Source: Escherichia coli
GTDB lineage: Bacteria > Pseudomonadota > Gammaproteobacteria > Enterobacterales > Enterobacteriaceae
DNA: 64,000 nucleotides
Strand: one strand, 5' to 3'
Assembly (NCBI RefSeq): GCF_003991155.1
Contig: NZ_CP031293.1
Shown here piece by piece: positions 1 to 3,441 of the stretch. The notes under the pieces are model-generated. The model saw only the letters and a program-made list of their open reading frames with translations, did no database searches and had not been told where the DNA came from. Within the stretch, counting starts at the first letter, position 1. Each line of letters starts with the position of its first letter. A program made the translations under genes and the position numbers.

Positions 1-1
1 A

Positions 2-163
2 GCATTAGGCGGAGAAATTAAGGAAGGAAGAGGTTCGCGTTGTAAGTTCATACTAAATATGAGCGTTGCGTGTTTCCATCGGCCTCATCCGTCGCCAGAT
101 ACCGATAAAGGCGCTGTAGAAAGCGTGCGTGACTGGTTACTAAGTATAGGGGTAAAACCATGA
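2..163 (+). CDS. HicA-family toxin-like protein, 5' end truncated by window edge (partial)
   Basis: Open frame running to TGA at 161..163, overlapping the downstream ATG as ATGA. Translation ...EGRGSRCKFILNMSVACFHRPHPSPDTDKGAVESVRDWLLSIGVKP resembles the HicA fold pattern (GS-x-x-x-F ... HP ... D ... G ... L..G). Hand translated; not in ORF track. Confidence 0.45.
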   Translation, partial: ALGGEIKEGRGSRCKFILNMSVACFHRPHPSPDTDKGAVESVRDWLLSIGVKP

Positions 164-519
164 TCAAACTGAAGACGCCAAACTCTATGGAGATTGCCGG
201 GCAACCTGCTGTTATCACTTACGTGCCAGAACTGAATGCATTTCGTGGCAAATTCCTGGGCTTGTCAGGTTATTGTGATTTTGTCTCTGACAGCATTCAG
301 GGGCTGCAAAAAGAAGGGGAGCTTTCCCTGCGAGAGTATCTTGAGGATTGTAAAGCTGCGGGTATTGAGCCGTATGCGCGTACAGAAAAGATTAAGACCT
401 TTACATTACGCTATCCAGAATCGCTGAGTGAACGCCTTAATAATGCGGCTGCGCAGCAACAAGTCTCTGTAAATACTTATATTATTGAAACGCTAAATGA
501 GCGTTTGAATCATTTATAA
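160..519 (+). CDS. HicB-family antitoxin-like protein with C-terminal ribbon-helix-helix-like segment
   Basis: ORF track 119 aa. N-terminal region YVPELNAFRGKFLGLSGYCDF and C-terminal KIKTFTLRYPESLSERLNNAAAQQQVSVNTYIIETLNERL look like a HicB antitoxin with an RHH DNA-binding tail. Start overlaps upstream stop (ATGA). Confidence 0.6.
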   Translation: MIKLKTPNSMEIAGQPAVITYVPELNAFRGKFLGLSGYCDFVSDSIQGLQKEGELSLREYLEDCKAAGIEPYARTEKIKTFTLRYPESLSERLNNAAAQQQVSVNTYIIETLNERLNHL

Positions 520-572
520 ATTTTAGCGGCGTGCATTACGCAGAGTATCTGCCTTTACAGGATCTATCTATG

Positions 573-607
573 TAACTGAACTTAATTTTATAAATTAAGT
601 TCAGTTA
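573..607. terminator. Near-perfect 16-bp-arm inverted repeat between convergent hicB-like gene and nikR; possible bidirectional terminator
   Basis: taactgaacttaattt / aaattaagttcagtta arms read directly from sequence; followed by T-rich tract on + strand. Confidence 0.4.
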
Positions 608-638
608 ATATCTTTTCTTTCCTCGTTTTAGAAATAAC

Positions 639-3441
<2,803 letters not shown>

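Follow-up and report, generated by a model that had tools for sequence, protein, structure and literature searches.

The 64,000-nucleotide stretch of Escherichia coli DNA analysed here (the window) opens in the middle of a short gene that overlaps a second one. The first-pass annotation took the two for a HicA/HicB toxin-antitoxin pair, and noticed that the toxin fragment reads G-S-R-C at the place where HicA toxins usually carry their catalytic histidine in a G-S-H motif. This locus raises the question of whether such a HicA is a variant operating with other residues, or a toxin that has lost its activity beside an antitoxin that was kept, knowing that the mechanistic knowledge of HicA rests wholly on G-S-H members. 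For the annotation of the window itself the pair is mundane, hicAB being already named by PGAP, and the arginine branch is the part worth attention.

The hicA-hicB pair and its surroundings

The features of the region are as follows (coordinates in the window, strand, nature):

1..163, plus strand: 3' part of hicA (codons 39-91 and the stop), truncated at the window edge; when complete, the gene measures 276 nt and encodes 91 aa (WP_001260301.1) in window-identical genomes
32..40, plus strand: GSR codons Gly49-Ser50-Arg51 (GGT TCG CGT); Arg51 is at the canonical catalytic-His position, at the start of strand beta2
77..91, plus strand: HRPHP codons His64-Arg65-Pro66-His67-Pro68, a signature of the subfamily (column counts, AF2 strands and hhalign register)
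148..152, plus strand: Shine-Dalgarno AGGGG for hicB, 7 nt before its ATG and within the 3' end of hicA (read from the sequence)
160..519, plus strand: hicB antitoxin, 119 aa, WP_000593555.1 (ORF list; Pfam, PHROG and fold matches)
160..384, plus strand: toxin-binding domain at the HicB N-terminus, residues 1-75, with four strands and a long helix in a partial RNase H-like fold
[quoted passage not shown]
573..617, plus strand: terminator-like hairpin with a 16-bp stem, a 3-nt loop and a T-rich tail (terminator scan; RNA fold of -28.6 kcal/mol, z = -3.5)
1..632, no strand: window part (right-hand side) of an 817-bp strain-variable hicAB cassette; K-12 homology resumes at window position 633, just past the nikR stop

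The frame 2..163 corresponds to the last 53 hicA codons (stop-free translation ALGGEIKEGRGSRCKFILNMSVACFHRPHPSPDTDKGAVESVRDWLLSIGVKP, then the stop), and the hicA TGA (161-163) overlaps the hicB ATG (160-162) in an ATGA junction, exactly as the first-pass annotation had read it. The full-length HicA protein, MRTQVQALRKKQKNTLDQIFKSPVPQGIKWSDIESLVKALGGEIKEGRGSRCKFILNMSVACFHRPHPSPDTDKGAVESVRDWLLSIGVKP (WP_001260301.1), was recovered from genomes identical to the window. These 91 residues matched the Pfam HicA_toxin family (PF07927; E = 3.7e-9, residues 30-80 on positions 1-52 of the 58-position model) and PHROG 8887 'toxin' (E = 2e-26), which bears out the HicA-like layout attributed to the fragment. 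The AlphaFold model of HicA (pLDDT 94) comprises two N-terminal helices followed by an alpha-beta-beta-beta-alpha arrangement, i.e. the dsRBD-like HicA fold, in agreement with solved HicA structures; in it, two strands span residues 51-56 and 59-64, Arg51 being the first residue of beta2 and His64 the end of beta3. The N-terminal 28-residue helical extension is conserved (T15, L16, I19, F20, P23 and W30).

The 119-aa protein, which had been taken for a HicB antitoxin with an RHH tail, matched Pfam HicB (PF05534; E = 3.5e-15) and PHROG 9151 'HicB-like antitoxin' (E = 6e-13), and its top Foldseek match was the Burkholderia pseudomallei HicB (6g26_A/B, probability 1.00), other matches being 6hpb_B (E. 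coli HicB), 6u0i, 6g1c and 2dsy (TTHA0281). Its AF2 model has strands at residues 9-12, 15-22, 27-32 and 40-43, a helix at 46-67, and C-terminal helices at 87-99 and 104-118. The matches of the tail are individually weak yet concordant, and they agree on a predicted RHH domain: Pfam Arc (E = 0.018) and CopG_antitoxin (E = 0.022), Arc repressor (E = 0.014) and AmrZ (E = 0.026) in the profile search against PDB, the Arc-like repressor of PHROG (E = 1.3e-6), and Arc 1b28 with Foldseek (probability 0.96). RefSeq (PGAP) names the pair 'type II toxin-antitoxin system HicA family toxin' and 'HicB family antitoxin' in 2,075 genomes, while NCBIfam gave no match for HicA, HicB or the 53-aa fragment, and PADLOC none for the pair. 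The module at the window edge is a genuine HicA/HicB toxin-antitoxin pair of E. coli, which existing annotation already names, and of a kind that is in itself ordinary.

The hicA-then-hicB order with an RHH-type HicB corresponds to class 4 of Gerdes 2024 (PMC10865869), whose Table S1 lists in this class an ortholog of the present HicB (about 80% identical, as judged by eye) together with the GSR-type HicA of an E. coli plasmid (UIV62394.1); catalytic residues are not discussed in that paper. The B. pseudomallei HicAB system (6G26, 4C26) is likewise a class 4 hicAB with an RHH HicB, but its HicA has 59 aa and the catalytic His24, whereas the present HicA has 91 aa, the 28-residue N-terminal extension, an arginine at that place and the extra invariant His64. 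The two toxins share approximately 18-24% sequence identity, and a phmmer search of the present HicA against PDB gave no match. The Neisseria gonorrhoeae FA1090 system also combines an RHH-type HicB with a dsRBD-type HicA (PMC12297915). In contrast, the HicAB system of E. coli K-12 (b4532/b1438, 6HPB) occupies another chromosomal locus (1.509 Mb), and it comprises a 58-aa HicA with G-S-N-His23 and a HicB with an HTH instead of an RHH (class 3), encoded by genes that are 45 bp apart, without overlap.

In the annotation of identical genomes, nikR (639..1040) is convergent with hicB and is followed by nikEDCBA. When compared by blastn with the nikR-yhhJ region of K-12, the matches stop at the yhhJ stop codon and restart at window position 633; the cassette spans the interval from the yhhJ stop to a few bases past the nikR stop, and hicA starts 72 bp after the yhhJ stop. 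At the same site, K-12 MG1655 harbours 6.7 kb with rhsB-yhhH-yrhC-yhhI between nikR and yhhJ, in agreement with the first-pass annotation, which put rhsB of K-12 on this side of nikR, and the nikR-yhhJ site is a catalogued rhs locus (PMC2935791), so that the junction suspected of being strain-variable is indeed so. In the O157:H7 strain BB24-1 and in NY1601, a gene named 'class II aldolase' stands 49 bp after hicB in place of nikR, which makes the right side of the cassette a second variable junction.

A predicted promoter (TTGACT-16-TACTAT), seen in the identical genomes, lies upstream of the window. Its -35 and -10 boxes are overlapped by a 21-nt imperfect inverted repeat, 76% complementary (TGACTTCATATTGTGATGTCA/TGATGTCATAAAGTGAAGTCA), which is a candidate operator. 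On the other side of the pair, the hairpin at 573-617 is a perfect AT-rich TAACTGAACTTAATTT-TAT-AAATTAAGTTCAGTTA, situated where hicB and nikR converge; it is part of the strain-specific cassette, does not occur in K-12, and may be a terminator for hicB, nikR or both.

Arginine at the place of the catalytic histidine

All characterised HicAs depend for their toxicity or RNase activity on the histidine that opens beta2, which follows Gly-Ser or Gly-Ser-Asn, as exemplified by His24 in B. pseudomallei and N. gonorrhoeae, His23 in E. coli, His28 in Yersinia pestis HicA3 and His36 in Streptococcus pneumoniae (PMC11594946, PMC12297915). In the window, the G-S-R-C tetrapeptide is encoded at 32-43 (GGT TCG CGT TGT). 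Using the hhalign profile-profile comparison of a 32-sequence subfamily alignment with an alignment of five solved HicAs, we obtained a gap-free match over 51 columns (probability 90.5%, E = 1.4e-6), where Gly49, Ser50 and Arg51 fall on Gly22, Ser23 and His24 of B. pseudomallei HicA, and Pro66-His67-Pro68 falls on Pro39-His40-Pro41, His67 being the equivalent of His40 in both the B. pseudomallei and the gonococcal HicA. Independently, the subfamily HMM places 'rGSR' on the 'RGSH' of 9svk_A, the histidine of which corresponds to the B. pseudomallei His24. The essential glycine of HicA toxins is present, Gly49 standing on Gly22 two residues before the catalytic position (Gly22 and His24 are the essential residues in the mutational map of FA1090 HicA; PMC12297915), and the catalytic histidine is absent, its column being occupied by Arg51. 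As judged from these alignments and from the predicted model, the canonical catalytic histidine is replaced by Arg51 in the present HicA, and the G-S-R-C anomaly noticed in the fragment does concern the catalytic site. The B. pseudomallei HicA chains deposited in PDB (4c26 and 6g26) have an alanine at position 24 (GSAHH), i.e. the inactivating H24A mutation, consistent with a wild-type toxin too toxic for production.

The replacement is widespread. A profile search of 1.84 billion representatives retrieved 2,471 clusters at E ≤ 1e-3 and 997 at E ≤ 1e-10, and the residues were counted in the HMM-anchored columns of 148 sequences taken from the best-scoring representatives and clustered at 50% identity. 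Gly49 is kept in 145 of these 148 representatives, Ser50, His64 and Pro66 in 144 each, His67 in 143, and Arg51 in 142, a histidine replacing it in a single one; the exceptions to the motifs are scattered singletons. The near-invariance of Arg51, His64 and His67 across distant relatives points to a conserved subfamily with an altered active site, and not to a decayed toxin. Judged by this conservation, Arg51 is a selected hallmark of the subfamily and no defect of the strain. Hence, the suggestion that this HicA is a variant using different residues is the favoured one, with the correction that the variation is not peculiar to this strain.

The clade, with some 1,000 clusters at 50% identity (E ≤ 1e-10), is found on chromosomes, plasmids and phages, and it extends from Enterobacterales as far as Rhizobiales, Deinococcus and Acidobacteriota. 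A tblastn search found relatives on 231 plasmids, one of them a Vibrio plasmid of 5.7 kb, and also in 51 phage records. The HicAs of Burkholderia phage ST79 (ST79_016/015), of the 12.8-kb Vitreoscilla plasmid p2Vster and of the E. coli plasmid (UIV62394.1) display the GSR and H(R/E)PHP motifs and the N-terminal extension seen here, and in the phage and the Vitreoscilla plasmid the gene is similarly followed by an ATGA-overlapping RHH-type hicB. Since the junction and the GSR and HRPHP motifs recur in phage and plasmid relatives that are only about 50% identical, the arrangement is conserved and is not due to chance. These GSR-type hicAB pairs are borne by phages or plasmids, whereas the present pair is fixed at a chromosomal junction. 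The motifs are conserved, and the gene persists beside its coupled antitoxin on mobile replicons of small size; both facts argue for a functional HicA.

The literature we searched contained no report of toxicity or RNase activity for any member of the GSR subfamily, and nothing relevant on the HRPHP motif, on a His/Arg substitution in HicA, or on hicAB at nikR/yhhJ. Several database copies of GSR-type HicA (Pectobacterium, Leminorella and E. coli) are named 'hexulose-6-phosphate synthase', which looks like a propagated misannotation.

hicA in the source strain and across E. coli

The cassette segment occurs in 2,075 of 5,426 complete E. coli genomes (about 38%), always on the chromosome. Many complete E. 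coli chromosomes match window positions 1-640 with 100% identity. Among approximately 2,073 carriers, hicA is disrupted in about 42%, through at least four independent disruptions:

TAA at codon 2 with a 17-bp promoter deletion (E. coli W type): 788 genomes
Q26*: 82 genomes
1-bp deletion in the GSR codons: 6 genomes
ISSen4 insertion in hicA: at least 1 genome (NCTC9064)

The 1-bp deletion (frameshift) allele is represented by 588 contigs in the protein collection, yet it is rare among complete genomes (6). The hicB gene was found to be intact at every locus examined, its product being WP_000593555.1 in 14 of 15 annotated loci, and a protein with R58L (WP_000593554.1) in NY1601. The comparison of the W-type with the window-type hicA revealed 16 synonymous changes, three conservative amino-acid changes and one stop; for hicB it revealed six synonymous and no non-synonymous changes. 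This repeated loss of hicA with retention of hicB is the pattern expected of a toxin that is harmful when unopposed, and it makes the E. coli locus a natural experiment on the decay of chromosomal toxin-antitoxin modules.

In the E. coli W allele, the 17 missing promoter bp remove one copy of the TGATGTCATA repeat, and PGAP still predicts a HicA, of 76 aa and starting at a CTG codon. In NCTC9064, the IS3-family element ISSen4 interrupts hicA, leaving a 5' remnant on one side and, on the other, a 3' ORF joined to codons that come from the IS; hicB is intact in this strain.

Coming back to the source of the window, no defect was found in 2..163, hicA codons 1-38 and the promoter lying outside the window. 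Perfect matches were obtained with 28 genomes for window positions 1-25000 and with 26 genomes for positions 39001-64000, 19 genomes being in both lists, and all eight genomes sampled from those identical to the window over both segments possess an intact 91-aa hicA (WP_001260301.1). From these identical genomes we infer that the strain of the window most likely possesses an intact hicA. The opposite reading, namely that hicA of this genome is a pseudogene broken upstream of position 1, leaving hicB as an orphan antitoxin, draws on CFSAN061771, which is 100% identical to window positions 1-640 and has Q26* (CAA to TAA) in a hicA that PGAP calls a pseudogene, as well as on the frequency of both the Q26* allele (82 genomes) and the codon-2 stop (788 genomes). 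We regard it as highly improbable, as the eight sampled two-end-identical genomes are all intact, the five named Q26* genomes are absent from both perfect-match lists, and the W-type allele is just 91% identical to the window allele. The use of CFSAN061771 as a proxy for the window was rejected on the basis of the same eight genomes. The idea that the toxin was inactivated and the antitoxin kept is consequently improbable for the window's strain but holds for other E. coli lineages, in which the inactivation stems from nonsense, frameshift and IS mutations and not from the arginine.

Proposed mechanism and its alternatives

Our best explanation of these data, to which we give a probability of about 0.62, is that the pair is a chromosomal type II hicAB operon of class 4, the GSR-type HicA of which is an active, growth-arresting RNase with a relocated histidine, HicB both neutralising this toxin and repressing the operon. 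The catalytic histidine would have moved to His64, or alternatively to His67; this residue would take the acid/base role, and Arg51 would serve as a ligand of the phosphate or of the transition state. In the beta2-beta3 hairpin (51-56 and 59-64), the two-residue turn should place Arg51 and His64 next to each other across the strands, on one face of the sheet, a predicted pairing that we deduced only from the strand boundaries of the AlphaFold model. As regards His67, its counterpart in gonococcal HicA, His40, is reported to be spatially near His24, and the His40Ala mutation has no effect in that toxin (PMC12297915), which indicates that the equivalent of His67 is not catalytic in canonical toxins. 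FA1090 HicA keeps the canonical His24, and the residue that is neutral there upon mutation to alanine is nevertheless invariant, as His67, in the GSR subfamily. HicB would cover the Arg51/His64 face of HicA, as in the solved complexes, and the RHH dimer of HicB would act as repressor of the operon on the imperfect inverted repeat of 21 nt at the predicted promoter. The operon would be terminated by the 573-617 hairpin.

Extended to the whole clade, this proposal becomes more tentative: it is possible that a widely spread group of HicAs moved its catalytic histidine from the start of beta2 to a cross-strand position in beta3 (His64, or His67 just after it), while keeping an arginine at the old site and adding an N-terminal helical module. 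If true, the active site would have migrated within an RNase of the dsRBD fold, and the RNA target or the cleavage chemistry might differ from those of all the HicAs studied so far. Similarly, should the Arg-for-His branch prove toxic, it would represent a second active-site solution in the family, and the 'catalytic His' would become unusable for calling homologues dead or alive.

The main competitor of an active GSR-type toxin is a catalytically dead one, which would either bind RNA or the ribosome stoichiometrically or have no role other than that of HicB's co-repressor or partner; the module would then be no RNase-based toxin-antitoxin system. The canonical catalytic histidine is indeed missing, and its replacement abolishes toxicity in the characterised HicAs (this holds for His-to-Ala in all those tested; PMC11594946, PMC12297915); by analogy, an arginine at this position of beta2 could mean that there is no catalysis, and the literature search returned no experimental report on the subfamily. 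We nevertheless consider a dead HicA rather unlikely, in view of the motifs kept across the 148 distant representatives, including two invariant histidines beside the old site, and of the coupled antitoxin that always accompanies the gene on plasmids and phages. The recurrent disruption of the E. coli hicA, but not of hicB, speaks in the same direction, even if a stoichiometric toxicity would fit all of this as well. It can also be envisaged that Arg51 is itself the key catalytic or binding residue, the conserved histidines being structural, in which case the RNase activity of HicA would depend on this arginine and its cleavage specificity might be another one. Arg51 is conserved as strongly as the histidines, and it occupies precisely the canonical position behind the essential glycine; but arginine serves poorly as a general acid/base at physiological pH, and the two invariant histidines, adjacent in sequence and in the predicted structure, are more economical candidates, so that we hold catalysis by Arg51 to be quite improbable. 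An active RNase with a relocated histidine is thus the reading that we retain.

At the other end of the window (39001-64000, in the annotation of identical genomes), genes named 'RecQ family ATP-dependent DNA helicase' and, twice, 'PstS family phosphate ABC transporter substrate-binding protein' lie beside glgP, glgB and glgX, and these RecQ and PstS genes near the glycogen operon may be an accessory insertion.
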